This document shows, piece after piece, positions 3,001-49,419 of a DNA stretch of 50,427 bases. Source of the DNA: a bacterium (GTDB taxonomy: Bacteria > Patescibacteriota > Patescibacteriia > JAGPKW01); the NCBI GenBank assembly GCA_021780535.1, contig JAJXYN010000004.1:1-50427 (forward strand), in the 5' to 3' direction. Within the stretch, counting starts at the first letter, position 1. Each line of letters opens with the position of its first letter. The translations under genes were made by a program, and so were the position numbers. The notes below the pieces were generated by a model. The model saw nothing but the letters and a program-made list of their open reading frames with translations. It did no database searches and was not told the origin of the DNA.

Positions 3001-6000
3001 GATACTCATAAGTATGATGTAAATGGAAATTATATTTCTTCTTTTGCTTTTGATAATAAAAATCAAGGAAATAATTCTTGTATGACTTTTGGTGGATATT
3101 GTGGTGATGGAGTAATACAATATGATTTTAGTACTACAAAAAACCAATCTGATCAGATTTTCTTTTATGGAAATCCTAATGGTTCATTGGAACAATGTGA
3201 CCCAAACGGCCACTCTGTTATGACAAGAAATTCTTCTGTATCTAATCAATACGGATGTGGTTCTAGTGGTGCTGCTGATGCTTGTCAAAATAAAGATGGA
3301 TATTGTGGTGATGGAGTAAAACAAATAAATGAAGAATGTGATTTTGCTTCCAAAGCGGGTAATGATTATTCCGGTACTAATTTAATTGCAAATGGTAAAT
3401 CTAGTGTTACACAGAATTCTTCTTATACTCAACAATATAGATGTGGTAAACCTCAGAAGTTTGTAACTCTTCCTGGTATAAAGACTAAATATGCTTCTTC
3501 TGGAAGTATAATTGGTACATTTACTGATGCTGATCTTTCTTCTGAAAACAATACATCCTCTTGTGTTACTTTTGGTGGATATTGCGGAGATGGTGTTATC
3601 CAAATTACTGCAGATTCTGAAAAAACTCAATCTGACCAATCTTGGTTTTATTCAAACCATGGAACATTAGAAGAGTGTGATCCTAAAGGACATTCTGTTA
3701 TTGCTCAATATTCTTCTGCTTCTAATTCATATACTTGTGGTTCTGTTAACACTAGCGATGCTTGTACTAATCTTGATTATACTCAGAAAGATTCAAATAA
3801 TAATTATGGTGGATATTGTGGAGATGGATATGTTCAATATTCTTTAACATCACCTGCTCTTGCAAATAGTAATTCTTCAAATAATGCAACTTTTCAAAGT
3901 ACAGTTGGAGGTAACCCTGAAGAATGTGATCCTTTTAATCATAGTGTTTCTGCTTTTTATTCCAGTCCTAATAATACTTATCTTTGTGGAGCTATCAATA
4001 CTGCTAGTGCTTGTCAGGATTTATTATATGCAGATAATAATAGTAGTGGATATTGTGGTGATGGTAAGATTCAATATGATCTAACAAAACCTGCAGCAAG
4101 TCAGGGGGATGCTGCTGAAAAAGGTGTTATAAATATTACTAATAATTCTCCAGAACAATGTGATCCAGTTGGTCATAGTGTTCTAGCTAAAGATTCTTCT
4201 GCTAATAATACATATTATTGTGGATCTGTTGTTGACGAACAAACAAATGGGAAACCTTATTCTTGTAGGGATATTGGTTATGCAACTACAGATGCTGTTA
4301 CTAAACAAGGTGGATATTGTGGTGATGGATTTACACAAAATGGTACAAATGGTACTCAAAACAAAGAAGAATGTGATCCTTCTTCTGTTGATTATTTGAA
4401 TGGAATTTTAATCTCTGGGAGAACAACTTCTAGTGCTTCTAAACAATATTTATGTTCTTCTACTGGTGTATGGTCTAGTAATCCTGCTGATACAACTAAA
4501 TATAAGGCTGATGGTACTAGTGATCCAACTTTTGTATATAATAATGTAAATAATAGTGATAATTCTTGTAGAACTTTTGGTGGATATTGTGGTGACGGTG
4601 TTGTACAAGTTTCTTTTAGTGTTAAGAAAAATCAAACAACTGATCAGCCCTGGTTTTATTCTAATTTAGGAACCTTAGAACAATGCGATCCTAAAGGACA
4701 TTCTGTTGTTACTCAATATTCTTCTGCTTCTAATTCATATACTTGTGGTTCTGTTGGTACTGCCAATTCTTGTTCTAACCTTGATTATACCCAAAAAGAT
4801 TCTAATAATAATTATGGTGGATATTGTGGGGATGGATATGTCCAGTATTCTTTAACAGCTACTCCTTTACAAAATATTGCTGCTAATTATCCTATATTTC
4901 AAACTACTGCAAATGGTGATCCTGAACAGTGTGATCCTTTAAATCATAGTACATCAGCAGCTTATTCTAGCCCAAGTAACACATATGCTTGTGGATCTAG
5001 TGGTACTGTAAATGCTTGTAAAGATTTAACTGCTGTTCAACAAGATTCTTCTTTGAAGTATGGTGGATATTGTGGAGATGGAGTAATCCAATATGATTTA
5101 ACAAAGCCAGCCGCTAACCAAGGAGATATTAATGAAACTTCCCCTATTGTTGTAACTGCTAATAGTCCAGAACAGTGTGATCCTGGTACTGGTAATAGTC
5201 ATATTGTTTTGGCTAAAAATTCATCCCCAGATAATACATATTATTGCGGATCTGTTACTGATGGTGCTGCTTATGCGTGTCGTGATGTCCTTTATGCTAC
5301 GACTAATAATATAACGAAACAGGGTGGATATTGTGGAGATGGTATTATTCAAGATGGAACAAATGGAACACAAAACAAAGAACAATGTGATTATGCTAGT
5401 TATGTTCCTCCTACGCCACAGACATCTTCTATTACAAAAACTTATGTATGTGGAGATAAAGTTACTGTTTATCCGAACGATCCAAATCATGATTTGGCAT
5501 GTAAGCTTGTGGATGCTTCACATGGTGGTGGATATTGTGGAGATGGTTCAGTTCAATTTTGTAAAGGGTCTGATGGTATTATAAAAACTAACCATACAGA
5601 TTGTTGGGATTCTAATAATATTGCTTTAAATGGTGTTACCCCACTTGAACAGTGTGATCCTGTAAATTATAATGTTACACCTGCTGTATCTTCAAAAATA
5701 AATAGATATATTTGTGGTTTGCAAACAGCTGGAGATGCATGTATGGATAAGGGTGGATATTGTGGAGATGGTACTATTAATATGTCATTAAATATTGATG
5801 GTCTAAATCGTAGAATTTCTACAAATGATTATGTCGCGACGAATTATAATTATGATACTTCTGCTACTCTTGAAAAATGTGATCCAGCTTATACACCAAC
5901 AATTACAGAAACAAATAATGTATTTGCTAATGGAGTTAAGCTTCCTAATATTTATATTCATTCAGCTGGACTTGAAGATTCTTCTGGTGTAACTGATCAT

Positions 6001-9000
6001 TCGTTAATTATTAACGGTGTTGCTAAAAATGTTGTTGGCAGAAGTTGGGCTGTCCATGTTTTTGATGCTAATTGGAATTATATAGAATCGCAAGATTACG
6101 ATGTTTATGTTAGTCAACTCGGTTCTTGTGCTAGCGCTGATCCTACTAGTTGTGCTAATGCTATGAATACTTATTTGAATTCTTTAGGAACTGATAAATA
6201 TGTTATATTTTCTACATATGATGAACCTAGGGGTAATATTGGTATTATATGGAATACTTTGAAAAATTTTGGTGCTAATGAAGATACTTTATCTCATTTA
6301 ATAACTGATTTTAGAGGTGCTTATTTGATGGTTGGTAAAAAAGGAATAGGTGCTGATAATAATTTTTTTGAAAGTTATACTCCTCATTATGGTACTGGTG
6401 TTACATTCACAACTAAAGATTTGAATGATAACTTTTTAGCTATTAATAATACATCTCAATCTGGTACAACAATATCTGATGCTATACATTATAATTGTAA
6501 AAATGATTGTACTTTTACCAATACTGCTACTGATTTTTGTGGAGACGGAATTACTCAGTCTGCAAATGGTGAACAGTGTGATCCTAAGAATTATGTTGTT
6601 CCTACAAATACAGCTTCTTCAAGTTCTAATCAATATGGTTGTTCATTGCTTTGTAAAGATACATCAGGATATTGTGGAGATGGTATAGTTGAAACTGCTT
6701 ATGGAGAAGAGTGTGATCCTTTGAATTATGTTGTTCCAAATGCTAAACAATCTGGAACTAATAGTACTTATAATTGTGGTTCTGTTGGTACTGCGAAAGC
6801 TTGTAAAAGATTATATTATTCTGATCTAGATGTTCCAACTGCTAAATATGGTGGATATTGTGGAGATTCTAAGGTTCAATATAATTTAGCAAGTGCTTCT
6901 GGAAGTCAAACGGATTCTACTTGGAAAACTGCTGTTACTATTGATTTAACTCATCCTGAACAATGTGATTATAATGGTTATATAATACCATTGCCTTCAC
7001 AATCTACAGTTAATTATCAATATTCTTGTACGGATGCTTCTACTCCTATTCCTTGTTCTAAAACCGGTGGATATTGTGGAGATTCTATAATTCAATCAGC
7101 TTATGAGGAGTGTGATTATGCTAATTATGTTCAACCTACTCCAGCACAATCTTCTGTATCTAGGATGTATTCTTGTGGAAATACCACTAAAGGTACTTAT
7201 GCTTGTTTTATGCTAGATAAAAATAACGGTGGGGGATATTGTGGAGATAATGTTTTACAAAATTCATTTGGAGAGATTTGTGAAAATACTTCTACTAATT
7301 CTAGTTTATCTGCTTGGTTAAATTTTGAAGGGGATAATAATGATTCTTCTTTAAATGGTAAAAATGGTGTATATACAGGGACTGGTTCTATGGAATATCT
7401 TCAAGGAAAAAATGGCCAGTCAGCAAATTTAAATGGGGATGATACGGTAACTATAAATAATGTTAATGTTAATACTAATGCTGGCGCTAAAAACACAGTA
7501 TCTTTTTGGATGTATTGGGGTGGTGGAAATGGTATGATGCCTATATCTTTTGGTAATAGTTATGATTTGTATCTTGTTAATAATTTTTTTGGATTTAATA
7601 CTGGTTTAGGAGATGATTTTGGAATAGATTTTTCTCCATCTACTTATGCTAATAAATGGGTACATGTTGTTGCTACTGTTTATAATGGTGTTCCAGATGC
7701 AACAAACAATGAATTATATATAAATGGTGTTAAGCAAGTAATCTCTCAAAAACTTGGTGTTAGTAATTCTTATAGAATGATTTCTAATTCTATAATTATT
7801 GGTGGTTGGATAAATGATGGCGGGTATAGATTTAATGGGATGTTAGATGACGTTAGGGTTTATAATAGACAATTAACTCAAACTGAAATTAATAGTATTT
7901 ATAACGCTTCTGGTTTCTCTAACTATTTATATAATGTAAATGATGGTGGTACTATAAGGAATGATTTATCTAATACAACATGTACTGCTAGTTGTGGTAC
8001 TACTGGTGATGGTTGGACTTGTGATACTGGTTATTATTGGAATATTGTTAATTATGGAGTTGGTACGTTTAATGTTTGTCGTGCTGTACCTTCTAATTCT
8101 GTTAGAATAGCTGGCTTGCATGGTGGTAATGATTATAGATGTAATGATGGTTTTGAAAAAGATGGTTCTGGTGGATGTAAGACTTGTGATCCAGGATATT
8201 ATTCTAATGGTGGTGGTTCTTGTTTAGCTTGCACGGCTATTGCTAATAGTAATTGGACTACAAAAGGTACACTTGCTAATAACTGTGGATTTAATTGTAA
8301 TGCAAGTTATCAATATGATGGAATTGCTAGAACTTGTACTTCATGTGCTACTGGAACTTGGACAGCTAATGCAAATCAATCTGCAACATGTTCTGCTTGT
8401 ACTGCGATTACTAATGCTAATGCTTTCACAACAAATGGTACTTCTGCAAATACTTGTGGATTTAATTGTAATGGAGCTTATTATTATAATGGTATTAATA
8501 GAACTTGTACTTCATGTGCTACTGGAACTTGGACAGCTAATGCAAATCAATCTAATTCTTGTTCTTCTTGTACAAATAAAGCTGGTAATGAGATATATAC
8601 ATCAAACGCTACTTCTGCTACGGGTTGTGCTGTTAATGGTTGTGCAGTAGGCCAATATCCTTTAACAAATACTTCTTGTACTTCTTGTACTGCAATTGCT
8701 AACGCTAATGCTTTTACAACAAATGGTACTTCTGCAAATACTTGTGGATTTAATTGTAATGCAAGTTATCAATATGATGGAATTGCTAGAACTTGTACTT
8801 CATGTGCTACTGGAACTTGGACAGCTAATGCAAATCAATCTACAACATGCTCTGCTTGTACAAACAAAGCTACTACTCAAATTTATACTTCTAATGCTAC
8901 TTCTATCACTGGTTGTACGGTAAGTGATTGTCCTATTGGTCAATATCCTTCTTCTAATGTGACTTGTTCTGTTTGTACTGCAATTTCTGGTGCGAATATG

Positions 9001-10869
9001 TTTATTACAAATGGATCTTCTGCTGTAACTTGTGGATTTAATTGTGTTGGCGGTTATTACTATAATGGTACTAATAGAACTTGTACTATTTGTGGTGCTA
9101 ATACTTGGGCACCTAGCGCTAATCAATATACTTCTTGTGCTGCTTGTGCCACTGAAACTTGGTCTTCTGCTGGAGCATCTTCTTGTACAGCTTGTGGTTA
9201 TTCTGGATGGAGTAATACTACATGTAATACTGGAAATACTTGGAATGCAACAAGGATTATAACATCTGGCAATACTACTCAATGTACAGCTCTTTCTACT
9301 ACAAACAATGGAGCTTGCTCATATTGTACTGGTACTCAAAGCCAAAGTCAGGCTTGTTCTATAGCTAATGGTACTGGAACGCAAAGTCAGAGTAGGACTT
9401 GTACAAATAATAACTATGATTCTTGGGGATCTTGGGGAACTTGTACTGTGGTAAGTTGTAATGATAATTATTACAAATCAAGTGCTACGGTTTGTTCTGC
9501 TTGTGCTGCTGAAACATGGTCTTCTGCTGGAGCATCTTCTTGTACGGCTTGCGGTTATTCTGGATGGAGTAATACTACATGTAATACTGGTAATACTTGG
9601 AATGCAACAAGAACTATAACATCTGGTAATACTACTCAATGTAAAACTATTTCTACTATAAATAACGGAGCTTGCTCGTATTGTACTGGTACTCAAAATC
9701 AAAGTCAGGCTTGTTCTATAGCTAATGGTACTGGAACGCAAAGTCAGAGTAGAACTTGTACAAATAATAACTATGATGCTTGGAGTGCTTGGAGTGGTTG
9801 TACTTTAACAAGTTGTAATACTGATTATGTTGCTTCTGGAAATTCTTGCGTACTTAGAACTTGTACTTTCCCGGATGATTATAACGCTGATCACCAAGCT
9901 TGCATAAGTAATAATTTCTATGATGTTTATTATGTGAAGAAAACTACTTCTAATTGTACTGTACCTTATAAATATGATTATAATCCATATAATAGTACTT
10001 ATGGTGCTAATGATATTTTATGGTGTAATAGTGGTAATCTTCCAGCTGGTATAGATTGTGCTTTAGTTGGTGATATAGCTGGTCATGCTTGCTCATATTG
10101 TACTGGTACTCAAAGTCAAAGTCAGGCTTGTACTATAACTAATGGTACTGGTACTCAAAGTCAGAGTAGAACTTGTACTAATAATAACTATGATGCTTGG
10201 AGTGCTTGGAGTACTTGTAGTGTTACAAGTTGTAATTCTGGATATTATGGTTCTGGAACATCTACTTGTAATGCTTGTGGATATAGTGGATGGAGTAATA
10301 TTGATTGTCAAAGTAATTCTACTTGGTATGCTACTAGAACGATAACTGCTGGTAATCCTACGGAATGTAATGCATCTTTAACTAATAGTAATAATGGCTC
10401 TTGTTGGTATTGTGGTAGTGGTTCAGCATCTTATACAACTCCTAATTCTGGAGATTGTAATAGTAGAGGAACTGCTACTTATTCTATGAATTGTAATACA
10501 TCTAATCATACATGGCCTGGTTGGGGATTTTCTTCTTGTTCTTGTAATGCTGATTATTATGGATCTCGTTGTGAAGCGACTTGTGCTTATAATAATTTAT
10601 GGACTCAGTATCAAGTAGATTGCCAAACTAATAATTTGTTTTATAGGTGGTATTATATGGACGCCTCTTCTGGAAGTAATTGTTCGAGACACTATGCCTC
10701 TGGTTATAGTGATGGTTGTACTTATTGTGCTTCACCAGGTGCTGATAATGGTAGTTGTGCTTATAGTTGTAATCCACATAATTGCAATTGTAATTGGAGT
10801 GGTGCATATTGTAGTACTTGTTATGATACTTGTTATTATACTTGTGATACTGCTCATTATTGTAGATAA
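1..10869 (+). CDS. Giant secreted/surface cysteine-rich repeat protein, 5' end outside the window (>3,596 aa). Mosaic of DUF4215/Myxococcus-type Cys-rich repeats, C-type-lectin-like, ILEI-like, LamG, ephrin-receptor-like Cys repeats and WSxWS modules.
   Basis: Frame 1 has no stop from nt 1 to the TAA at 10867-10869, and the track start at 79 is only an internal TTG. About 24 copies of GGYCGDG(x)Q...E(E/Q)CD are present. The first 26 codons (GSYSINVIVTDDYNLG) look like the end of an Ig/cadherin-like repeat. A strong terminator follows. Confidence 0.9.
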   Translation, partial: GNLLFGQNFVGSYSINVIVTDDYNLGLQSTTNPHNSSASYDIGFDIGPGCGDRIVQKNLGETCELKPNESVKNIYMDWGTYTNSVINTDFKQPDGSGDCVAYKFIENSFDWKGKLDDIPCLENHYGLCERRSSFGCDGWIAGPNDNCYLITKSSGDYDTEKSECESYNAELVVVDDANEEKSINANSLIAAKGVLWTGYRKENGYFYSVRGGRWSDASSLNNYDIYRDNIYGSGTGVSAASAYACGLPWENDACRQVKGYCGDGVYSSLFEECDKTDKTSYGKGYDINNQYGCGIGDGVNDNNPNNNTCRQQEGWCGDSSFNPTYEHCDPTVRITASESSSATFGITNGAHQYSCQPKTKNNEMTYLDYSDFEANKNVPADVMCRKSFGGYCGDGQIQMFYSIDSNGNYYISSDDVGSQDGTNQKWKGIVFDVNSKKYKYNNADMTSDQLNNIIEECDPTNYPCDPNSKEGSCRFPKNSSEIAQYGGCGQVSTSLAKSPVVLSCFVYKDLSNNIIDCAGSCTFNSTTKVCDKKNNDNNVCTIYYQKKNGGYGMVNYTGECGCKKIYGGYCGDSIVQDQFNEECDSNQVDSAGFSVYDSGKLTKGNLTTISQYSDVNKQYLCGQTVAYSENIADLNKRDASGAVVSNAFTANYANVNNNEMACNILGGYCGDGVIQSDYVTLKSQSDQSWLYANQGTLEECDPKGVSVVAKYSSPNNTYTCGSVNTARACRDLSYNEQDSNNKYGGYCGDSFVQYNLTDPGVPNNPANYSIFRNTTGGNPEQCDPVGHNTLPNQSNLNNQYSCGLTPNDNACTNIGGYCGDGVVNAYRNFSTNEPSGNGDCVTLKTGIGWNGKWDDVPCTDPYEYVCEQENPSKNVCPSGFVRFDNGNYNCYSISSISSNFSSINCPIGSHLAVINSQEENDFIASLADSNSILYIGLNDIDREGEFVWSGNTGFAEECDPNSTDYKSGATSKILVGVAPASNVNKQYLCGSTGVWTTVPNDTHKYDVNGNYISSFAFDNKNQGNNSCMTFGGYCGDGVIQYDFSTTKNQSDQIFFYGNPNGSLEQCDPNGHSVMTRNSSVSNQYGCGSSGAADACQNKDGYCGDGVKQINEECDFASKAGNDYSGTNLIANGKSSVTQNSSYTQQYRCGKPQKFVTLPGIKTKYASSGSIIGTFTDADLSSENNTSSCVTFGGYCGDGVIQITADSEKTQSDQSWFYSNHGTLEECDPKGHSVIAQYSSASNSYTCGSVNTSDACTNLDYTQKDSNNNYGGYCGDGYVQYSLTSPALANSNSSNNATFQSTVGGNPEECDPFNHSVSAFYSSPNNTYLCGAINTASACQDLLYADNNSSGYCGDGKIQYDLTKPAASQGDAAEKGVINITNNSPEQCDPVGHSVLAKDSSANNTYYCGSVVDEQTNGKPYSCRDIGYATTDAVTKQGGYCGDGFTQNGTNGTQNKEECDPSSVDYLNGILISGRTTSSASKQYLCSSTGVWSSNPADTTKYKADGTSDPTFVYNNVNNSDNSCRTFGGYCGDGVVQVSFSVKKNQTTDQPWFYSNLGTLEQCDPKGHSVVTQYSSASNSYTCGSVGTANSCSNLDYTQKDSNNNYGGYCGDGYVQYSLTATPLQNIAANYPIFQTTANGDPEQCDPLNHSTSAAYSSPSNTYACGSSGTVNACKDLTAVQQDSSLKYGGYCGDGVIQYDLTKPAANQGDINETSPIVVTANSPEQCDPGTGNSHIVLAKNSSPDNTYYCGSVTDGAAYACRDVLYATTNNITKQGGYCGDGIIQDGTNGTQNKEQCDYASYVPPTPQTSSITKTYVCGDKVTVYPNDPNHDLACKLVDASHGGGYCGDGSVQFCKGSDGIIKTNHTDCWDSNNIALNGVTPLEQCDPVNYNVTPAVSSKINRYICGLQTAGDACMDKGGYCGDGTINMSLNIDGLNRRISTNDYVATNYNYDTSATLEKCDPAYTPTITETNNVFANGVKLPNIYIHSAGLEDSSGVTDHSLIINGVAKNVVGRSWAVHVFDANWNYIESQDYDVYVSQLGSCASADPTSCANAMNTYLNSLGTDKYVIFSTYDEPRGNIGIIWNTLKNFGANEDTLSHLITDFRGAYLMVGKKGIGADNNFFESYTPHYGTGVTFTTKDLNDNFLAINNTSQSGTTISDAIHYNCKNDCTFTNTATDFCGDGITQSANGEQCDPKNYVVPTNTASSSSNQYGCSLLCKDTSGYCGDGIVETAYGEECDPLNYVVPNAKQSGTNSTYNCGSVGTAKACKRLYYSDLDVPTAKYGGYCGDSKVQYNLASASGSQTDSTWKTAVTIDLTHPEQCDYNGYIIPLPSQSTVNYQYSCTDASTPIPCSKTGGYCGDSIIQSAYEECDYANYVQPTPAQSSVSRMYSCGNTTKGTYACFMLDKNNGGGYCGDNVLQNSFGEICENTSTNSSLSAWLNFEGDNNDSSLNGKNGVYTGTGSMEYLQGKNGQSANLNGDDTVTINNVNVNTNAGAKNTVSFWMYWGGGNGMMPISFGNSYDLYLVNNFFGFNTGLGDDFGIDFSPSTYANKWVHVVATVYNGVPDATNNELYINGVKQVISQKLGVSNSYRMISNSIIIGGWINDGGYRFNGMLDDVRVYNRQLTQTEINSIYNASGFSNYLYNVNDGGTIRNDLSNTTCTASCGTTGDGWTCDTGYYWNIVNYGVGTFNVCRAVPSNSVRIAGLHGGNDYRCNDGFEKDGSGGCKTCDPGYYSNGGGSCLACTAIANSNWTTKGTLANNCGFNCNASYQYDGIARTCTSCATGTWTANANQSATCSACTAITNANAFTTNGTSANTCGFNCNGAYYYNGINRTCTSCATGTWTANANQSNSCSSCTNKAGNEIYTSNATSATGCAVNGCAVGQYPLTNTSCTSCTAIANANAFTTNGTSANTCGFNCNASYQYDGIARTCTSCATGTWTANANQSTTCSACTNKATTQIYTSNATSITGCTVSDCPIGQYPSSNVTCSVCTAISGANMFITNGSSAVTCGFNCVGGYYYNGTNRTCTICGANTWAPSANQYTSCAACATETWSSAGASSCTACGYSGWSNTTCNTGNTWNATRIITSGNTTQCTALSTTNNGACSYCTGTQSQSQACSIANGTGTQSQSRTCTNNNYDSWGSWGTCTVVSCNDNYYKSSATVCSACAAETWSSAGASSCTACGYSGWSNTTCNTGNTWNATRTITSGNTTQCKTISTINNGACSYCTGTQNQSQACSIANGTGTQSQSRTCTNNNYDAWSAWSGCTLTSCNTDYVASGNSCVLRTCTFPDDYNADHQACISNNFYDVYYVKKTTSNCTVPYKYDYNPYNSTYGANDILWCNSGNLPAGIDCALVGDIAGHACSYCTGTQSQSQACTITNGTGTQSQSRTCTNNNYDAWSAWSTCSVTSCNSGYYGSGTSTCNACGYSGWSNIDCQSNSTWYATRTITAGNPTECNASLTNSNNGSCWYCGSGSASYTTPNSGDCNSRGTATYSMNCNTSNHTWPGWGFSSCSCNADYYGSRCEATCAYNNLWTQYQVDCQTNNLFYRWYYMDASSGSNCSRHYASGYSDGCTYCASPGADNGSCAYSCNPHNCNCNWSGAYCSTCYDTCYYTCDTAHYCR
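217..650 (+). other. C-type-lectin-like domain 1 inside the giant CDS, with the C-terminal half encoded before the N-terminal half
   Basis: ...QPDGSGDCVAYKF..WKGKLDDIPCLENHYGLCE matches the CTLD C-half (CV..W.D..C..f.CE). It is followed by GCDGWIAGPNDNCYLI....CESYNAELVVVDDANEEKSI....VLWTGYRK, which matches the CTLD N-half (C..GW...CY, WIGL-like). Confidence 0.5.
2470..2865 (+). other. C-type-lectin-like domain 2 inside the giant CDS, same permuted order, inserted between the CGDG and EECD halves of one Cys-rich repeat
   Basis: NAYRNFSTNEPSGNGDCVTLKTGIGWNGKWDDVPCTDPYEYVCE is followed by CPSGFVRFDNGNYNCYSI...CPIGSHLAVINSQEENDFIASL...LYIGLNDIDREGEFVWSGNTGF. Confidence 0.55.
5930..6420 (+). other. 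ILEI/FAM3-like (GG-type lectin-like) domain inside the giant CDS
   Basis: This Cys-poor island reads SLIINGVAKNVVGRSWAVHVFDANWNYIESQDYDVY...MNTYLNSLGTDKYVIFSTYDEPRGN...LKNFGANE..LITDFRGAYLMVGKKG. It resembles the ILEI/PANDER pattern as recalled from memory. No HMM was run. Confidence 0.4.
7306..7910 (+). other. LamG / concanavalin-A-like (Laminin_G_3) domain inside the giant CDS
   Basis: LSAWLNFEGDNNDSSLNGKNGVYTG...SANLNGDDTVTI...NTVSFWMYW...WVHVVATVYNG...NELYINGVKQ...IIIGGW...FNGMLDDVRVYNRQLTQTEINSIYN is the classic Laminin_G_3 motif series. Confidence 0.75.
7975..9130 (+). repeat. Tandem ephrin-receptor-like / GCC2_GCC3-type cysteine repeats with near-identical DNA copies
   Basis: CTSCATGTWTANANQSxTCSAC and NAFTTNGTSANTCGFNCN(A/G)xYxY(D/N)GIxRTC each recur 3-4 times. 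About 120 nt at 8281-8400 is almost identical to 8741-8860, and 8401-8470 to 8691-8760. Confidence 0.7.
9130..10260 (+). repeat. Three ~115-aa modules containing G.G.Q.Q.R.C and W(S/G)xW(S/G)xC motifs (thrombospondin-type-1-like, tentative)
   Basis: CAACA(T/A)ETWSSAGASSCTACGYSGWSNTTCNTGNTWNATR.ITSGNTTQC...ACSYCTGTQ.QSQACSIANGTGTQSQSRTCTNNNYD.W..W..C occurs at ~9130-9470 and ~9480-9800 with near-identical DNA. A diverged third copy sits at ~10085-10260. Confidence 0.6.
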
Positions 10870-11902: not shown

Positions 11903-12960
11903 TTATTTTTTAATGCTATTAAGTTTATAGAAGTAGTTATTATTGAATTTGTATAGGTTTCCCAAGAATCTTCTTTTGATAATCTAAATTTCCAAAATAC
12001 TTCATTTGAATCCCAAGACCCATCTTTATTTTGATTTTCTAATATTATTTTACTAGCCTTCTCATTATCTACCCCACATGTTTTTAGTGATGCTAGTGCT
12101 AATGCTGTTTCGTAATTATTTCCAAAACCATTACCCCATGATCCATTTATATTTTGTGATTTTTGTATGAAATTTATAGCTTTATTTTTTATTTCATCAA
12201 GCCCTACATCTTTATACTCACATAAAAACTTTAAAAACATATATGTAGAATAGTATTTTGAAGGGTAGAAATAGCTTTTAAATGATCCATCTTCGTTTTG
12301 GCTATTTTTTATTAAATTTTTATTAATTTCAAAATTATTTCTTTGTTTTGTTTCTAGTAATAGATTGTATATATTTGCATTTACTTCTGAGTGAGATTTA
12401 TAATTTTCTTTTGAATCTTGCATCAATTGGTTTTCTCTAAAAGATGAAAAATCTTTTGTATCTTTATTATAGAAAAATTCTATATCATTTAATTTATAAT
12501 CTATTTTTAACTTTTCTAATGTTCTCATAGCAAAAGCTGTATCATCTGAATCGTTCCATTCTTTAATTTTTTCTTTAGTTTCGTAGCCCCACAAAGATTC
12601 TCCCGGAGTGTTTATATTTCTTAATAGTGTATTTATTTCATTTTTATCTAATCTTTCTCCTATTGCTTGTGATATGAAAAATCCGTAAATAATGGACCCC
12701 GTGTATGGATTCATACAGTTTGGACATTTTTTTACATCTCCTTTTGCTATGCTTTTCATAGAAAATGGTTGTTTAGAATCTATTTTATTCTTTAAGTATC
12801 TTGTACCTTTTTCTATAGCTTCTTTATTGCTTGTGTTATTATTCATTGATTTTTTTGTATTTTTTGATCCTTGATTTTGTGTTGATAAAAAAAATAAAAA
12901 TAAAATAGATGCTATTATCATGATGGTTATTACTAATATAATATTTATTTTTTTTGTCAT
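11899..12960 (-). CDS. Membrane-anchored protein with prenyltransferase / squalene-cyclase-type alpha-alpha toroid repeats
   Basis: An N-terminal TM helix (ILVITIMIIASILFLFFL) is followed by repeats of the Q.xDGSW type: SQNEDGSFKSYFY, SQNINGSWGNGFGNNYETALALASL and NQNKDGSWDS. Confidence 0.6.
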   Translation of the reverse strand: MTKKINIILVITIMIIASILFLFFLSTQNQGSKNTKKSMNNNTSNKEAIEKGTRYLKNKIDSKQPFSMKSIAKGDVKKCPNCMNPYTGSIIYGFFISQAIGERLDKNEINTLLRNINTPGESLWGYETKEKIKEWNDSDDTAFAMRTLEKLKIDYKLNDIEFFYNKDTKDFSSFRENQLMQDSKENYKSHSEVNANIYNLLLETKQRNNFEINKNLIKNSQNEDGSFKSYFYPSKYYSTYMFLKFLCEYKDVGLDEIKNKAINFIQKSQNINGSWGNGFGNNYETALALASLKTCGVDNEKASKIILENQNKDGSWDSNEVFWKFRLSKEDSWETYTNSIITTSINLIALKNN

Positions 12961-13024
12961 TTATTTTTTTATTTTATGTTACAATGTTATTAATTATACA
13001 ATAAAAATTCATAATTAAGAATTC

Positions 13025-13888
13025 ATGTTTTTTAAAAAAATATTAGGATTTATAAATTTATACAGACTAGATATTGCTTTTATAACAGTTCTTTTATATT
13101 TGTTCGGATCTTTTTTTGTTATTGGGTTTAAATCTTTCAATGTAATTAATTTTTTGATGTCATTTTTGATTTCTTTTGTTTCTGTTAATTTTATATATTC
13201 TTTAAATTCTTGGTTTGATGCTGATATTGATAAAATAAATAAACCTACTAGACCAATTCCTGCTGGAATTATTACTAAAAAAGAAGCATATATTTATTCA
13301 ATTTGTTTATTACTAGTATCTATTGTTTATCCTATATTTTTTATTAATATTTCTAATTTTATATTATTAGTTTATATTTTTCCGATTATTGGTATTTTAT
13401 ATTCAAATAAAATTTTTAGCTTTAAAAAAAATAAATATTTGGCTTTGTTTGCTATTACTTTTTCTCTTGTTATGGTTTTTGCCATTAGTTTTTTAATTAA
13501 TGGTGGAATTATTAATAATAATTTTATTTTAACGACTATTTCTTTTTGGTTTTTAACTATTGCCATCGTTATTTTTAAAGATTTATCTGATATAGAAGGG
13601 GATAAAAAATACGGATCTGAAAATTGGTTTGTTGTATTATCTAAAAATAAAGTTTTGGCTATTTCGTTTATTTTTATATTATTATCTTTTATATTTTCTT
13701 TTTTTATGGATAATATTTTTATTAAAATTATTACTATTATACAATTATCTTCTATTTTATTTCTACTTTTTATATTTTCCATTTTTAAAATTAATTTTGA
13801 TAAATTTTATAATTCTCTTCTTAAGTTTCTTATTATTAATGGATTTATTTATATTATTATTTATTCCTGTGTTAAATTATTTTTATAA
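13025..13888 (+). CDS. UbiA-family aromatic/isoprenoid prenyltransferase
   Basis: The first Asp-rich motif is NSWFDADIDKINKPTRPIPAG and the second is KDLSDIEGDKKYG. The protein has about 8-9 TM helices and is 287 aa. It is divergent from the toroid-repeat gene across a 64-bp spacer. Confidence 0.8.
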   Translation: MFFKKILGFINLYRLDIAFITVLLYLFGSFFVIGFKSFNVINFLMSFLISFVSVNFIYSLNSWFDADIDKINKPTRPIPAGIITKKEAYIYSICLLLVSIVYPIFFINISNFILLVYIFPIIGILYSNKIFSFKKNKYLALFAITFSLVMVFAISFLINGGIINNNFILTTISFWFLTIAIVIFKDLSDIEGDKKYGSENWFVVLSKNKVLAISFIFILLSFIFSFFMDNIFIKIITIIQLSSILFLLFIFSIFKINFDKFYNSLLKFLIINGFIYIIIYSCVKLFL

Positions 13889-18584: not shown

Positions 18585-19691
18585 ATGGAGCTTAGAGAAA
18601 TTATTAATAAAATAGATGAATTAAAAATACGTGCTCAAAATGCAGCACGTATTTTAGATATAGAGAATAAAAGAATTAAAATAAAAAGTCTTGAATTTGA
18701 AATAAATGACGAAGGCTTTTGGAACGATACTATTCGTGCTCAAAATATATCTAAAGAGCTAGCTTTTTTAAAGGAGCATGTATTTTTTTGGGATAATTTA
18801 AATAAGGATATTGATAATTTAAAAGAAATTGCATTAGATGATATTGTTTCAAAGGATGTAAATTTATTAGATGATGTAAAAAATACTTATTTTAGGATAT
18901 TAAAAGATTTTGAGAAAGAAGAGTTTTTTGTTTTATTTAATAATAAATATGACAACTCTAATATTGTTTTATCAATTCATGCTGGTGCTGGTGGTGATGA
19001 TGCTCAAGATTTTGCAGCTATTTTACTTAGGATGTATCTTAGATTTTGTGAAAAAAAAGGTTTTGAAACTATTATTGTTGACGAAACAAAAGGTGGTGAA
19101 GTTGGTTTTAAAAGTGTTACTGTTTTGGTTAAAGGACCTTATGCTTATGGATATTTTAGAAGTGAATATGGTGTTCATAGAGTTATAAGAATATCGCCGT
19201 ATGATGCTGATCATGCAAGACATACTTCTTTTGTTTCAGTTGAAATTTTACCAGAATTGGATGATGTTAAAAAAATTGAATTGAATGATGAAGATTTAAG
19301 AATTGATACTTTTATGTCATCTGGAGCTGGAGGTCAATCTGTGAATACTACATATTCTGCTGTTAGGATTGTTCACATTCCGACTGGCATTTCTGTTTCT
19401 TGTCAAAATGAAAGAAGTCAAACTCAAAATAAAGAAACGGCTATAAAAATATTAAAATCAAAATTATTAGAATTGAAACAAAGGGAATTGCTTGATGAAA
19501 AAAATCAATTGAAAGGTGAATATAAAAGTATAGAATGGGGATCTCAAATTAGAACTTATGTTTTTCACCCGTATAAACAAGTTAGAGATCACAGAAGTGG
19601 TTATGAAACTTCTAATGTTGATAATGTTATTGATGGGGATTTAGATGAATTAATTGAAAGTTATTTGAGATTGGGAGAAATTAAGAATTAA
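18585..19691 (+). CDS. prfB: Peptide chain release factor 2, encoded without a frameshift
   Basis: The GGQ motif is SGAGGQSVNTT. The RF2-type region is RISPYDADHARHTSFVSV. The ORF is a single contiguous 368 aa. Confidence 0.9.
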   Translation: MELREIINKIDELKIRAQNAARILDIENKRIKIKSLEFEINDEGFWNDTIRAQNISKELAFLKEHVFFWDNLNKDIDNLKEIALDDIVSKDVNLLDDVKNTYFRILKDFEKEEFFVLFNNKYDNSNIVLSIHAGAGGDDAQDFAAILLRMYLRFCEKKGFETIIVDETKGGEVGFKSVTVLVKGPYAYGYFRSEYGVHRVIRISPYDADHARHTSFVSVEILPELDDVKKIELNDEDLRIDTFMSSGAGGQSVNTTYSAVRIVHIPTGISVSCQNERSQTQNKETAIKILKSKLLELKQRELLDEKNQLKGEYKSIEWGSQIRTYVFHPYKQVRDHRSGYETSNVDNVIDGDLDELIESYLRLGEIKN

Positions 19692-19810: not shown

Positions 19811-19912
19811 AAAATAAATCTAATTGTAATATTTTCTTTTCCTGGTATTCCGCTCAATTAGGATATCGTAAGAGCTTCATAAAGAAACGAAAATATTATA
19901 ATTAGATTTATT
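19811..19912 (+). repeat. Copy 1 of a ~100-nt hairpin-flanked repeat element (element X), either MITE-like or a structured sRNA
   Basis: The 24-nt terminal arms AATAAATCTAATTGTAATATTTTC / GAAAATATTATAATTAGATTTATT pair with one G-T position. They flank the core TTTTCCTGGTATTCCGCTCAATTAGGATATCGTAAGAGCTTCATAAAGAAAC. The element is related to 47874-47971 and to the reverse complement of 34261-34355. Confidence 0.7.
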
Positions 19913-20013
19913 GTTACAAAAAAATCAATTAACTTTTTAATTATTAATCTTTAATTTTTCTGTCAAATTTTTTTTTATTTTTTATAATTTTATTTTTTAT
20001 TTTTATTGGAATT

Positions 20014-21147
20014 TTGACTTCTGATAAGAATTTTAGTTTGGTTAATTGTAATGATTCTAAGAATATTTGTTTTTATAATGGGAAAAACGAAGATTTGGAA
20101 GGCTTTATTGTATCTGAAATTAATGATAAAAATGGGAGAAAAGAATTTATTATTGAAAATAAAAAAAATGGAAATAATAGAATTTTAATTTCCGTTTATT
20201 CTAAGAGTGATTTATTTTATGGTGATTATTTATATATTAATTGTGATTTGGCTTTCCCAAATAATTCTAAAAATTCTAAATTTAATTACATTAGATATTT
20301 ACAATTAAAAAATGTTTATTCTGTTTGTAATAATATTAAAATATCAAAATATGAAAATATGAAAAAATTTGATTTGTATTATTATATTTTAAAGTTAAAA
20401 TATTTTGTAAAAAATAGGGTGGACGAGATATATGAGAAGCCCTATAGTGGGTTGATTTTTGGTGTTCTTTTTGGTGGTAATTTTTTGGATAAAGATTTAT
20501 CTAATTTGTTTTCTAAAGCTGGTATATCACATATTACCGCTGTTTCTGGTTATAATGTATCTATAATAGTATCTATTTTGTCCGGAGTATTTTTAAAAAT
20601 TGGTGTGAATAGATTTAAAATATTTTATTTTTTGTTAATTTTTTTATTTTTATTTGTATTATTTACTGGAGCTACTGCTTCTGTTATAAGAGCTGCTATT
20701 ATGGGTGCTTGTTCTTTGATGGCTTTACAATTTGGTAGGATTTCAAGTGGGGTTTTACTATTGTTTTTTGTAGGTTTTGTAATGGTCTTATCTAATCCTC
20801 TTATTTTGATTTATGATGTTGGTTTTGAGCTTTCATTTTTAGCCACTTTTGGTATTTTGTTTTTTAAGCCAATATTAGATAATGTATTTATTAAATTTAA
20901 TAATTTTTTAAATATAAAAGATTCTTTTAATACTACTATTTCTGCCTTTGTTTGCACATTTCCTGTTATTTTTATTAATTTTGGTTCGTTTAATTTATTG
21001 TCTATAATTATTAATTTATTAGTTTTGCAATATATTCCATTTTTGATGTTTTTTGGTTTTGTGTCTATTTTTTTATCAAAATTCGTGTCATTTTTTGCTG
21101 TTTTTATTATGAAATATATTATTTTTATATGTCAGGTTTTTACTTAG
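20014..21147 (+). CDS. comEC: ComEC/Rec2-family DNA internalisation channel, core only, no metallo-beta-lactamase domain
   Basis: An OB-fold-like N-terminal region is followed by the competence domain (GISHITAVSGYNVSII, ASVIRAAIMG). The annotated start is a TTG. The frame is open back to 19948 and encodes a hydrophobic helix there with no ATG, so the start is uncertain. Confidence 0.75.
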   Translation: MTSDKNFSLVNCNDSKNICFYNGKNEDLEGFIVSEINDKNGRKEFIIENKKNGNNRILISVYSKSDLFYGDYLYINCDLAFPNNSKNSKFNYIRYLQLKNVYSVCNNIKISKYENMKKFDLYYYILKLKYFVKNRVDEIYEKPYSGLIFGVLFGGNFLDKDLSNLFSKAGISHITAVSGYNVSIIVSILSGVFLKIGVNRFKIFYFLLIFLFLFVLFTGATASVIRAAIMGACSLMALQFGRISSGVLLLFFVGFVMVLSNPLILIYDVGFELSFLATFGILFFKPILDNVFIKFNNFLNIKDSFNTTISAFVCTFPVIFINFGSFNLLSIIINLLVLQYIPFLMFFGFVSIFLSKFVSFFAVFIMKYIIFICQVFT

Positions 21148-27760: not shown

Positions 27761-27895
27761 TAATTAATACATGATCCAAATAAGATAATAATATTCGCTA
27801 TTGCTCATTTATTATCTAATGGATCTTCCAACTTTAGAATAATAATATTCGCTATTGCTCATTTATTATCTAATGGATCTTCCAACGCTAGAATA
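27737..27895 (+). repeat. Three direct copies of ATGGATCTTCCAAC(TT/GC)TAGAATA. The first copy is the 3' end of the CDS. Two embedded hairpins share a conserved 17-nt loop.
   Basis: Copies start at 27737, 27819 and 27873, giving spacings of 82 and 54 nt. The first hairpin is GATAATAA-TATTCGCTATTGCTCAT-TTATTATC at 27784-27816. The second lies at about 27837-27870. Confidence 0.8.
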
Positions 27896-28345: not shown

Positions 28346-28444
28346 TAAAATATAGAAATATTAAAATATAAAAAAGATAAACACTTTAATGTTTTAATAT
28401 TTGAACTTTTCTATGTTTTAATATTTAATATTTTAATATTTGTT
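28346..28444 (+). promoter_or_regulatory. AT-rich palindromic upstream element (family E, copy E3)
   Basis: It contains the exact 12-mer ATATAGAAATAT (28350-28361) and the right-arm motif TTTTCTATGTTTTAATATTTAATATTTTAATATT, which runs up to the glyQS ATG. Confidence 0.55.
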
Positions 28445-31208: not shown

Positions 31209-31276
31209 GAAATATAGAAATATTGAAAAATTAAAAAGTTTTTATATTTTCATGTTTAAATGTTTAAATATTTTAT
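31209..31276 (+). promoter_or_regulatory. AT-rich palindromic upstream element (family E, copy E4)
   Basis: The exact 12-mer ATATAGAAATAT is at 31212-31223, the centre is AAAAAGTTTTT, and the right motif TTTTCATGTTT is at 31247-31257. The element ends at the ATG. Confidence 0.55.
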
Positions 31277-33075: not shown

Positions 33076-33125
33076 AACATATTTACTTTGATTTATGACT
33101 TGCTAAATCTTAAAGATTGCAGTGA

Positions 33126-33195
33126 TTTTTCTATCTTCATTTTTTTTGACTCTGCGATGTATTCTCGAATCAAAAAATAATGAAGCATAGAAAAA
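33126..33195. repeat. Long AT-rich imperfect hairpin with a GC-richer 20-nt loop, possibly a distant relative of element X
   Basis: The arms are TTTTTCTATCTTCATTTTTTTTGA / TCAAAAAATAATGAAGCATAGAAAAA and the loop is CTCTGCGATGTATTCTCGAA. It shares TTTTTCTAT and GTATTC with the reverse complement of element X copy 3. Confidence 0.4.
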
Positions 33196-33246
33196 CACTA
33201 TTTAAGTATTGTATTAAAACTAATTAATCTAATTAAACTATTTTCT

Positions 33247-34002
33247 ATGATTGATTCGCACTGTCATTTGGACTTTGAAGATTTTGATAAAGATAGGGAT
33301 GATATTGTTAAATCAGCTTTGGATGCTGGTGTTTTTAAGATTATTAATCCTTGTTCTCATTTTCCTTCTAATTTTAAAGTTATTGAACTTGCTAAGAGAT
33401 ATGATAATTATTATTTTTCTATTGGCTTGCATCCTGATGAGGCTAGTAAGTTAAATGGAAATGAACTTGTTGAAATTGAAAAATTAATTTTTAATGATAA
33501 ATGTATTGCTGTTGGTGAAATTGGCCTTGATTATCATTATCCTGATTTTGATAAACAAAAACAAGTGGATTTATTTATTGCTCAATTGGAGTTGGCTAAA
33601 AAATATAATAAACCAGTTATTATTCATAATAGAGATGCTGTTACTGATATTTATGATATTTTAAAGACATATAATCTTAAGGGTGTTATTCATTGTTATT
33701 CTGAAAATGTGGAATGGGCAAAGAAATTTTTAGACCTTGGCTTTTTTATTTCTTTTACTGGTATTATTACTTTTAAGAATTGTGGCCAGGAATTATTAGA
33801 TGTTGTTAAATTTATTCCTTTGGAAAAAATATTAATTGAAACTGATGCTCCTTTTTTAGCACCAGTGCCATTTAGAGGGAAATTAAATAAACCGGAATAT
33901 GTTAAATATGTTGCAGAAAAAGTTGCTGAAATTAAAAACATTGTTGTTGAAGATGTTATAAAAACTACGGATAAAAATGTGTTTAATTTGTTTGGGATAT
34001 AA
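33247..34002 (+). CDS. tatD: TatD-family metal-dependent hydrolase/DNase
   Basis: Motifs seen are IDSHCHL, GEIGLDYHY, VIIHNRDA, GVIHCYS and ETDAPFL. Confidence 0.9.
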   Translation: MIDSHCHLDFEDFDKDRDDIVKSALDAGVFKIINPCSHFPSNFKVIELAKRYDNYYFSIGLHPDEASKLNGNELVEIEKLIFNDKCIAVGEIGLDYHYPDFDKQKQVDLFIAQLELAKKYNKPVIIHNRDAVTDIYDILKTYNLKGVIHCYSENVEWAKKFLDLGFFISFTGIITFKNCGQELLDVVKFIPLEKILIETDAPFLAPVPFRGKLNKPEYVKYVAEKVAEIKNIVVEDVIKTTDKNVFNLFGI

Positions 34003-34012
34003 AAAATGATTG

Positions 34013-34045
34013 TAAGTTGCAAGATATATTTGCAACTTATTTTTT
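34013..34045 (+). terminator. Rho-independent terminator after tatD
   Basis: TAAGTTGCAA / TTGCAACTTA is a 10-bp stem with a 7-nt loop, followed by TTTTTT. Confidence 0.8.
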
Positions 34046-34108
34046 AAAATTGTAGAAAAAAAATAATTAATGTATTATTAATTTGTAATTAATATTTTTG
34101 TAATTTAT

Positions 34109-34294
34109 ATGAAGTATATAGATGCAATAACTGTTTTTTCTCATTGCATAGATTATGTCTTGTCTGATTTGCCTGATTTATGTGCAGATAGAATTGATTA
34201 TTCTTTTAAACATTTTACTGAATATTGTGGTTTAAACTTAGAAAGGGTGGGTTATTGTTTAAATAAGTTAGAAAATGTTTTCGTTTCGTTGTGA
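34109..34294 (+). pseudogene. Possible remnant of an HD-domain phosphohydrolase gene (61-aa ORF)
   Basis: ...DLCADRIDYSFKHF... resembles the ADRLDY(L)LRD motif near the C-terminal part of HD-superfamily hydrolases. The ORF is far too short for a full domain, and its 3' end runs into element X copy 3. Confidence 0.3.
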
Positions 34295-34355
34295 AGCTCC
34301 TTTGAATACCCAATAAAGCGGAACATAGAAAAAGAAAATACTTATATTATTTACT
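34261..34355 (-). repeat. Copy 3 of element X, inverted orientation, with degenerate arms
   Basis: The reverse complement reads ...GTATTTTCTTTTTCTATGTTCCGCTTTATTGGGTATTCAAAGGAGCTTCACAACGAAACGAAAACATT... It aligns to the cores of copies 1 and 2 through the blocks TTTTC, TTCCGCT, ATT, GAGCTTCA and GAAAC. Confidence 0.6.
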
Positions 34356-34365
34356 AAAAATATTG

Positions 34366-37935: not shown

Positions 37936-38029
37936 GAAATGAAAATATAGAAATATAAAAATATCCAAAAGTTTTTGAGTATTTTCATGTTTTCATATTT
38001 TAATATTTTAATATTTTAATATTCTTGCT
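37936..38029 (+). promoter_or_regulatory. AT-rich palindromic upstream element (family E, copy E5) with (ATATTTTA)x3
   Basis: The exact 12-mer ATATAGAAATAT is at 37945-37956, the centre is CCAAAAGTTTTTGAG, and TTTTCATGTTT is at 37982-37992. An 8-nt-period ATATTTTA x3 then runs up to the ATG. Confidence 0.55.
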
Positions 38030-44962: not shown

Positions 44963-46445
<1,483 letters not shown>

Positions 46446-47804: not shown

Positions 47805-47873
47805 ATAGACAATAATGCTTTTGTGTGTTATAATTTTTTTACTAATTAAAGACATTTTTTTAATATAAATTAC

Positions 47874-47971
47874 AAAATAAATTAATTATAATATTTTCTT
47901 TTCATGGTGTCCTGTCCAATTAATTTTAGAGGAGCTCACAAATAAATGAAAACATTACAACTAAATTTATT
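47874..47971 (+). repeat. Copy 2 of element X
   Basis: The arms AAAATAAATTAATTATAATATTTTC / GAAAACATTACAACTAAATTTATT flank the core TTTTCATGGTGTCCTGTCCAATTAATTTTAGAGGAGCTCACAAATAAAT. The element ends about 30 nt upstream of the RluA-family gene. Confidence 0.65.
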
Positions 47972-48732: not shown

Positions 48733-49356
48733 ATGAATAAAAATATTATTACAATTTCTGGAAAACCGGGTTGTGGTAAATCAACTATTGCTAAAATATT
48801 ATCAAAAGAATTAAATTATAAACTCATTTCTTCTGGAGATAAATTTAGAGAAATAGCTCGTGAAAATGACTTAAATATTGTTGATTTTGTGTCTGAATAT
48901 TTACCAAAACACCCAGAAGTAGATATTGAGATTGATCAATATTTTATTGATTATGCTAAAAATAATAATAATTTAATTATTCCAACAAGAATAATTGGTC
49001 ATTTATTAGATTTAAATAAAATTAATAATTTTAAAGTTTATTTATACGCTGATTTTGATGTTAGGGTTTTAAGAATATCTAATAGAGAAAATGATATTAA
49101 TATAAATAATATAAAAAAAGATTTGGAAAAGAGAGAAGTGTCTGAATGTAATAATTTTATTAGACTTTATAACATTGACATAAATGATTTAACAATGTAT
49201 AATTTGGTGATATATACGCATTTTATACCTTCTAACCCTGGTTTGATACAAATTAGGTTTAATAACAAAGTAGAATATATAAAATCCGATAATACTCTAC
49301 CAGAAATTATATCTAGTATTATTATTGAGAAGTATAATGAATTTTTAGATAATTAA
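48733..49356 (+). CDS. P-loop nucleoside-monophosphate kinase, cytidylate-kinase-like (archaeal-type cmk family)
   Basis: The P-loop ITISGKPGCGKSTIAK sits at the N-terminus. The protein is 207 aa. The family assignment is tentative. Confidence 0.55.
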   Translation: MNKNIITISGKPGCGKSTIAKILSKELNYKLISSGDKFREIARENDLNIVDFVSEYLPKHPEVDIEIDQYFIDYAKNNNNLIIPTRIIGHLLDLNKINNFKVYLYADFDVRVLRISNRENDININNIKKDLEKREVSECNNFIRLYNIDINDLTMYNLVIYTHFIPSNPGLIQIRFNNKVEYIKSDNTLPEIISSIIIEKYNEFLDN

Positions 49357-49380
49357 TAAGCGATAGCGAATATAATTATC
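49348..49380 (-). repeat. Third, inverted copy of the conserved-loop hairpin seen at 27784-27816
   Basis: The minus strand reads GATAATTA-TATTCGCTATCGCTTAT-TAATTATC. The stem differs from GATAATAA/TTATTATC by a compensated pair, and the loop matches at 15 of 17 positions. The cmk-like stop codon lies in the stem. Confidence 0.65.
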
Positions 49381-49419
49381 TTATAATGAAATAAGAATCT
49401 AAATTTTAAGTAAAATTAA

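Follow-up and report, generated by a model that had tools for sequence, protein, structure and literature searches.

The 50,427-nt contig JAJXYN010000004.1 (assembly GCA_021780535.1, Patescibacteriota), hereafter the window, contains three copies of a hairpin-forming sequence of about 100 nt, Element X, which is a real and previously uncatalogued repeat family. We consider it probable that Element X is a non-coding, non-autonomous and structure-dependent mobile hairpin repeat family, comparable to ERIC, REPIN and miniature inverted-repeat transposable element (MITE) sequences, and that it has dispersed through a clade of Patescibacteria (candidate phyla radiation, CPR) at the level of a genus or family. 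The palindromic-repeat class fits because the copies are dispersed, lineage-specific insertions found in both orientations, because decay and gene truncation are seen among them, and because the hairpin is kept through sequence change. No description of Element X was found in the literature on CPR MITEs or structured intergenic RNAs.

An nhmmer profile built from the three loci and searched against the window recovered all of them (E 1.6e-24, 5.9e-21 and 1.5e-20), and no other forward-strand site scored better than E 0.18, confirming the three copies that the initial annotation of this stretch had proposed. The reverse strands of copies 1 and 2 also score weakly because the element is palindromic. 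A covariance model placed the copies within 2–4 nt of where they had originally been drawn (Table 1), with the same architecture of inverted arms (24 nt) around a core of 49–52 nt. The arms of copy 1 are completely paired (24/24, one G.T; minimum free energy −32.4 kcal/mol, z −7.2), while only 13 and 10 of the 18 outer positions pair in copies 2 and 3 respectively, the same ranking of arm complementarity as first described. On the strand used in that description copies 2 and 3 fold far less well (z −0.3 and −0.9); both are visibly decaying, so not every copy is maintained. The sequence of copy 2 is nevertheless identical across four assemblies (L001–L004). The best of the remaining matches in the window, weak and partial at 33223–33293 (nhmmer E 0.18), resembles a solo 5′ arm beside the tatD start and may be a relic.

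The family now comprises 11 copies at 10 independent loci (the three window copies and eight more). A degenerate pattern of three conserved blocks was scanned against public collections, and seven of 117 pattern matches in metagenome contigs proved to be true relatives (E 1e-8 to 1e-15; Table 1); two of these, L182 and L195, share one 581-kb contig about 100 kb apart, and four matches came from a single assembly, JACCEE01. The eighth, found through the DnaG comparison, lies in L201 (GCA_027355865.1), which supplies 21.8 kb more of the window's genome, giving this metagenome-assembled genome (MAG) four copies in ~80 kb (window plus L201), or about one per 20 kb. The 66 pattern matches in GTDB species genomes were all chance on profile scoring, with the window's species apparently contributing no exact-pattern copy to that collection. 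Among viral contigs one pattern matched twice, both times by chance, and the other not at all, and blastn gave no match in phages and a sole, arm-only match in plasmids (AT-rich, chance). The nearest sister species had no copy in 13 surveyed loci (~230 kb, with some overlap). The initial annotation had looked to a wider search for further copies and for the target-site duplications flanking them: eight more copies were found, and no recognisable duplication.

Named proteins in two of the metagenome loci carry Patescibacteria annotation, and the named homologues of the window's RluA-family and DUF8128 proteins come from Patescibacteria/Parcubacteria-group MAGs. The RluA-family protein occurs unchanged in GCA_027355865.1, GCA_021833805.1, a 178-kb ENA contig and a Logan assembly. 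Between the window's own MAG and L099 the DnaG identity is 88%, which makes these metagenome hosts relatives of the window organism.

Copies of Element X arise through insertion into intergenic DNA, since close relatives lack the element at all five orthologous sites tested: the RluA leader, prfA–comEC, tatD–helicase, the dnaG leader and map–ruvX. The RluA leader is free of the element in L071, L073, L075 and L077 (RluA amino-acid identities of 88%, 86%, 73% and 71% respectively). In L071 and L073 the same terminator and −35/−10 arrangement is followed after 26–28 nt by the RluA ATG, and the window has ~140 extra nucleotides, including copy 2, between the conserved start of the leader and the ATG. 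The prfA–comEC spacer measures 322 nt in the window versus 118 nt in L197, which has no copy; shared blocks precede the insertion point and similar sequence resumes beyond it. For the dnaG leader the polarity is reversed: L099 and L195 carry the element, and no copy is present there in the window's own genome (L201) or in three relatives, L203, L204 and L206 (DnaG identities of 89%, 85% and 76%). The map–ruvX spacer is filled in L160; that of L207/L208, whose Map proteins fall in the same 90%-identity cluster as that of L160, is without Element X and holds a different small hairpin repeat. We dropped the idea that the arms are copied from the target site, as those of copy 1 and L118 are near-identical in unrelated contexts and the empty sites contain no arm sequence.

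The tatD–helicase site, free of the element in L196 and L197, also documents a gene truncation. In L196 this interval contains an intact 331-aa gene (12420–13415) with no Pfam domain, and the window retains a 61-codon open reading frame (ORF) matching residues 144–179 of the encoded protein (tblastn, 22/36 identical, 61%, E 2e-13). This remnant is a mosaic of the N-terminus (MKY..D.I matches), residues ~86–100 and residues 144–179. Its frame runs into the inverted copy 3, which bears out the initial observation of an inverted copy at the end of a gene remnant and places copy 3 at the junction of a deletion or truncation. In the window lineage the loss of this gene (34003–34362) is recent.

Each unit folds as a single strand into one rod-like hairpin (Table 1). 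In intact copies the pairing begins at ATTTTC/GAAAA, extends outward for 23–24 bp and then ends sharply. In the 11-sequence model alignment 86% of cells are in standard pairs versus 73% in column shuffles, and 18 pairs have changed on both sides, a number reached in none of 500 shuffles; slid controls, with partners offset by 1–3 columns, gave 40–49% pairing and 6–10 double-changed pairs. Compensation reaches into the core, where columns 30–73 form A-U pairs in seven copies and C-G pairs in the other four, columns 29–74 have one U-A versus seven C-G, and columns 35–69 one A-U versus nine G-C. RNAalifold independently recovered P1, P2 and P4. This covariation supports folding as a structured single strand.

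Sequence conservation is concentrated in the centre of the element. The outer 18 bp of the arms share only 58–61% identity between copies, near the level of two unrelated AT-rich sequences, yet in the nine intact copies 14–18 of these 18 positions pair internally (16–18 in eight of the nine). The inner 66 columns are 78–81% identical between copies, and the blocks ATTTTCTTTT, TTCCGC, CAATT, GAGCT, CAYAA and GAAAAYAT are invariant or nearly so in all 11, so the conserved blocks listed from the window alone hold for the whole family. An A.C mismatch at columns 19–83, equivalent to a G.U pair on the opposite strand, is kept in 9/11 copies. The orthologous copy in L099 and L195 has only four differences in 100 positions, versus 32–37% of fourfold-degenerate sites in the flanking genes and an adjacent spacer segment that is unalignable, with a 31-nt indel; other parts of that spacer that look functional, a terminator and a promoter-like block, are conserved to a similar degree. 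These figures point to purifying selection on this copy, with recent exchange between the two lineages as the alternative.

The element has the same orientation as the flanking genes in six independent copies and the opposite one at three loci. At 8/10 loci the base of the hairpin lies 8–43 nt before a start codon, five of them at 23–29 nt, in either orientation (Table 1), a pattern that includes the originally noted position of copy 2 ahead of the RluA-family gene; copy 1, as also noted then, lies ~100 nt before the ComEC-family ORF. Four of the six copies whose spacers are long enough to judge fall in the start-codon-proximal fifth of the spacer, which is suggestive only. The downstream genes are unrelated (RluA, ComEC, helicase, DnaG, CysS, ThrS, RuvX, MBL hydrolase and TPM phosphatase).

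The site upstream of copy 2 (TAGACA-17-TATAAT, Table 1) is the best promoter-like match in its region and has the same −35/−10 arrangement as in the element-free L071 and L073; if this predicted promoter is used, copy 2 would be transcribed within the RluA leader. Judging from such positions, some copies are likely to be co-transcribed in mRNA leaders, because they sit in leaders downstream of putative promoters. For copy 1 the best promoter-like site is downstream (CTGTCA-17-TATAAT, 19960–19988). A conserved outward promoter was considered and dropped: the arms show no conservation of their −10-like hexamers, and the promoter-like sites that score best lie outside copies 1 and 2. No conserved promoter or terminator accompanies the copies at a fixed distance and there is no U-tract; nothing resembling a terminator turned up near copies 1 and 2, and the stems are AT-rich with no T-run after them. 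The ComEC-family ORF beyond copy 1 begins at TTG and is 20 aa shorter than its L197 orthologue, which has a DUF4131 N-terminal match; the insertion may have shifted the ComEC start, or the start may be miscalled (19913–20016).

Table 1. Copies of Element X, their component parts and consensus structure, and associated features. Positions refer to the window unless a locus is named.
Feature	Position	Strand	Description	Covariance model	Gap to next start codon
Copy 1	19813–19912	+	Intact hairpin; between prfA (18585–19691) and ComEC-family ORF (20014–21147)	R1, 95 bits, E 3e-18	~101 nt, start codon uncertain
Copy 1, 5′ arm	19813–19836	+			
Copy 1, core	19837–19888	+			
Copy 1, 3′ arm	19889–19912	+			
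Copy 2	47875–47971	+	Partly degraded hairpin; between hypothetical gene and RluA-family gene, in RluA 5′ leader (ATG 48001)	58.8 bits	29 nt
Copy 2, 5′ arm	47875–47898	+			
Copy 2, core	47899–47947	+			
Copy 2, 3′ arm	47948–47971	+			
Copy 3	34259–34357	−	Inverted, arms degraded; between tatD and UvrD/PD-(D/E)XK helicase-nuclease gene (ATG 34366)	71.1 bits	8 nt
Copy 3, 5′ arm (element orientation)	34334–34357	−			
Copy 3, core	34283–34333	−			
Copy 3, 3′ arm (element orientation)	34259–34282	−			
Copy 4	L201:15227–15324		Between two TPM-phosphatase genes	76 bits	23 nt
L118			Metagenome copy		25 nt
L183			Metagenome copy		324 nt
L182			Metagenome copy		24 nt
L099			Metagenome copy		26 nt
L195			Metagenome copy		27 nt
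L165			Metagenome copy		43 nt
L160			Metagenome copy		15 nt
P1			Outer stem of 24 bp, AT-rich		
P2			5 bp, mostly UUCAU/AUGAA		
P3			3 bp		
Internal loop			3×3, UYC/UYC, conserved		
P4			4 bp, GC(N)UC/GAGC		
Apical loop			16 nt, AAUUNAGAUAUCNNAR, conserved		
Promoter-like site	47806–47834	+	TAGACA-17-TATAAT with TG extension, upstream of copy 2; 11/12 consensus positions		
Remnant ORF	34109–34294	+	61 codons; relic of 331-aa gene of L196; frame enters copy 3		
Third small repeat	27780–27873		Two tandem units		
Third small repeat	~49340–49385		Inverted		
Third small repeat	L207:10800–10838				

Known repeat classes match Element X in part. Comparison with the ERIC-type families draws on general knowledge of them, and the resemblance is architectural only: ERIC/IRU (~127 bp), RUP, BOX and bcr1 are likewise imperfect palindromes of ~100–130 nt that form one long hairpin with a conserved centre, lie between genes within transcribed regions in either orientation, are patchy in copy number and encode no transposase. 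Element X has no evident sequence similarity to them, resides in a different host phylum (Patescibacteria), and has outer 18 bp that are nearly free in sequence but strictly complementary, and a clustering ~25 nt before start codons. REPINs, doublets of REP sequences mobilised by RAYT tyrosine/HUH transposases, share a hairpin unit of ~100 nt and compensatory stem changes that imply a single-stranded intermediate and recognition by structure. A target-site duplication is not expected in REPINs; none was recognisable here in AT-rich flanks of low complexity. In REPINs, however, the REP arms are conserved and the spacer is variable, the reverse of the variable arms and conserved 52-nt centre of Element X, and they number hundreds per genome; no RAYT gene was seen in the sequence surveyed.

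The initial annotation had offered two readings, a mobile remnant of the MITE or PATE (palindrome-associated transposable element) type and a family of small structured RNA genes. Mobility is supported by dispersal in both orientations, absence from orthologous sites and decay, but neither label fits the element well. Like MITEs, including the Correia elements of Neisseria, Element X is short and non-coding (~100 nt, no conserved ORF), has terminal inverted repeats (TIRs; the 24-bp arms) and shows presence/absence polymorphism, here at five orthologous sites, with insertion close to promoters and leaders, positions from which such elements can affect transcription or the processing of RNA. Correia hairpins are RNase III substrates. 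In Correia elements and typical MITEs the termini are conserved and a set duplication (TA) is made, whereas the terminal repeats of Element X vary between copies around a conserved core and no duplication is recognisable. PATEs, derived from IS200/IS605, are likewise small and non-autonomous and depend on DNA hairpins; no target-site duplication is seen in them, and none was recognisable for Element X. They have distinct left and right subterminal hairpins and no TIR, and a fixed motif of four or five nucleotides adjoins their insertion sites, whereas Element X forms one symmetric hairpin with inverted arms and has no conserved flanking motif. Of the RNA reading, the structured single strand is supported by the covariation and by the one orthologue that looks constrained; nothing points to independent RNA genes, the orientation being mixed and no conserved promoter or terminator accompanying the copies. 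That the copies match no recognised RNA family was confirmed: at gathering thresholds Rfam found only 16S rRNA and tRNA-Thr in the whole window, at E≤10 copy 1, L118 and L099 matched miRNA and snoRNA hairpin models only (13–25 bits against cut-offs of 43–180; copies 2 and 3 were covered by the gathering-threshold scan only), and ARAGORN found no tRNA or tmRNA at the copies. By eye, hammerhead and twister cores did not match the element, and the likeness of the core to IHF sites and DnaA boxes was partial only.

Copies of Element X have landed mostly in the short zone between promoter and start codon, in either orientation; some, such as copies 2 and 3, have since decayed and at least one orthologous copy has been kept almost unchanged, with the outer stem drifting in sequence between copies while its self-complementarity persists. 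Element X departs from classical MITEs and REPINs in being conserved at its centre, with little constraint on the sequence of its termini, and we infer from this that propagation depends on recognition of a folded single strand and its conserved core rather than of terminal sequence. Mobility would then be closer to that of hairpin-dependent systems (REPIN/RAYT-like, or a structure-specific enzyme acting in trans) than to a DDE transposase acting on terminal repeats. A perfect 24-bp duplex ~25 nt before a start codon may also serve as an RNase III-type substrate or modify mRNA stability, and such an effect in leaders could explain the retention of some copies.

Several observations weigh against this reading. 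No consistent direct repeat flanks the copies and no target motif is common to all flanks, which are AT-rich and of low complexity, with empty sites too diverged for exact junctions. The ~300 kb of relevant sequence examined showed neither a full-length parent element nor any gene for a transposase, HUH/RAYT protein or reverse transcriptase, and no transposase-like Pfam domain was found in the part of the window's genes covered (eight scanned directly, others via L001 and relatives' orthologues). The counts of G.U and A.C (6 versus 16, eight of the latter from one conserved column) favour neither strand. The arm complementarity, maintained largely through A-U/U-A flips, could reflect arm-to-arm conversion in a hairpin or cruciform, or could persist by co-evolution of TIRs with a transposase, in both cases with no single-stranded intermediate. 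An RNA or DNA site of benefit to the host would account for the strong conservation of the core across hosts, and for that of the L099/L195 copy, no less well than a selfish element. There is a small chance that the 52-nt core, held in a sequence-free but obligatorily paired stem, is a functional module of a new class, either a protein-binding or catalytic leader RNA or the recognition module of an undescribed, structure-guided mobilisation system that reads the folded core and not the termini; the near-unchanged orthologous copy (4% versus ~35% at neutral sites) and the retained A.C/G.U position are what keep this in consideration.

Among the rival explanations, the one to be taken most seriously, though itself unlikely, is a family of independently transcribed small RNAs, trans-acting or protein-binding, with the stem under selection, the loops as the functional surface and copies generated by duplication. 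Covariation through all helices, the invariant loops, the L099/L195 copy being far more conserved than neutral sites, the A.C position kept in 9/11 copies and an orientation independent of neighbouring genes all agree with it. Against it, neither a promoter nor a terminator is conserved at a fixed distance and there is no U-tract; the copies are non-syntenic even between relatives at ~88% protein identity, two of the three window copies are decaying, Rfam holds no relative, and the compensatory changes are mostly A-U/U-A flips or transversion pairs rather than the G.U-mediated paths typical of RNA. It is somewhat less probable still that Element X is an ordinary MITE, an internally deleted insertion sequence (IS) whose duplex termini are bound by a DDE transposase, the apparent covariation of the arms arising as each subfamily matches its own enzyme. 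The ~24-bp TIRs of every copy, the small size, insertion polymorphism, AT-rich intergenic targets and arms near-identical across genomes (e.g. copy 1 and L118) accord with this, but conservation is lowest at the termini and, in the centre, extends across subfamilies, compensatory changes reach the inner helices, no target-site duplication is recognisable, and neither the window and the related loci nor the phage, plasmid and viral collections yielded a parent IS or transposase.

The conserved hexamers GATATC and GAGCTC raise the idea of a duplex-DNA module or cruciform bound by a dimeric regulator or nucleoid protein: both are palindromic, the dyad is kept where L160 changes GATATC to AATATT, and orientation independence suits a DNA site. 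We hold this to be very improbable, as a DNA site needs neither a covarying 24-bp stem nor inner helices with compensatory changes, the full core lacks dyad symmetry, and insertion polymorphism goes unexplained. Hardly more can be said for a cis-regulatory leader RNA (riboswitch, attenuator or protein-binding leader) serving the downstream gene, to which we give slightly less credence: most copies do lie 8–43 nt from a start codon, and a strong promoter-like site precedes copy 2, but both orientations occur relative to the downstream genes, these genes are unrelated, and the same leaders are without the element in close relatives. A small-peptide gene in the core (type I toxin-like or a leader peptide) can be practically discounted. 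A minus-sense ORF, MFSF(I/R)C..., with its ATG from the conserved C of GAAAACAT, is present in 9/11 copies and a plus-sense GGAG-N8-ATG (MNENII...) in six; however, the stops vary (9 to 24 codons), the ATG is missing in two intact copies, L099 and L118 differ by five non-synonymous and two synonymous changes, the minus-sense ORF has no ribosome-binding site, and the plus-sense ATG is absent from all four copies of the window's own genome.

Genomes of CPR bacteria (Patescibacteria) are very small and are usually considered to contain little mobile DNA. Element X suggests that they can carry active small mobile hairpins despite reduction, the window holding at least three small hairpin repeat families, and Element X sits right ahead of the start codons of housekeeping genes. 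If transcribed, these hairpins would add structure to leaders in a lineage-specific way, with possible effects on how mRNAs are processed and how stable they are, in organisms for which very few regulators are known. Recent genome change among closely related CPR species can also be traced with this family, and its conserved core and sequence-free arms make it a tractable case for determining what structure-dependent mobile elements need.

A second, unrelated hairpin (33123–33197; ~75 nt, ~24-bp arms, −26.8 kcal/mol) occupies the 171-nt spacer (33076–33246) between a TP_methylase (RsmI-like) gene and tatD, genes that overlap or abut in L196 and L197. A 74%-identical counterpart is found at a non-orthologous site of a sister species (L073:17264–17395), and the hairpin looks like another mobile family. 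A third small repeat, AGATAAT(A/T)ATATTCGCTAT(T/C)G(C/T)T(C/T)ATT(T/A)ATTATCTAA, has short inverted arms of its own and lies before tRNA-Thr and between cmk and rplS in the window (Table 1); in a relative it occupies the map–ruvX spacer exactly where L160 has Element X. Just upstream of tatD (33218–33236) is an exact 18–19-mer, ACTAATTAATCTAATTAA, that recurs in CTAATTAAT/CCAATTAAT-like arrays upstream of dnaG in relatives (L204:~7240–7370) and adjoins the L099 copy of Element X (L099:2485–2515). It resembles the 5′ arm of Element X (nhmmer E 0.18) and is not enriched in the window (2 matches versus 3.5 expected). Runs of the ATTTTAATATT/TTTTCATATTTT type (20332–20375, 28356–28441, 31229–31272 and 37969–38026) lie mostly just upstream of start codons, with one inside comEC, and form 85–94% inverted repeats between loci; they may represent a motif of leaders or promoters, or just sequence of low complexity.

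The window (~28% GC, nearly all genes on the + strand) has one 16S rRNA gene and one tRNA gene (tRNA-Thr). The 16S rRNA gene is complete (44963–46444) and is followed directly by protein-coding genes, with no 23S or 5S in the next 4 kb, which indicates that the rRNA genes are unlinked. Downstream of rplS in the relative with 73% RluA identity (L075/L076:13106–20741) are genes for a serine recombinase (Resolvase and Recombinase domains), SLATT_4 and DUF3892; the region resembles an integrated element or defence island and has no counterpart in the window. Positions 1–10869 of the window are occupied by an ORF of more than 3,596 aa that runs off its left end and probably encodes a giant surface protein, containing dozens of cysteine-rich GGYCGDG repeats and several longer internal repeat families of 177–300 nt.

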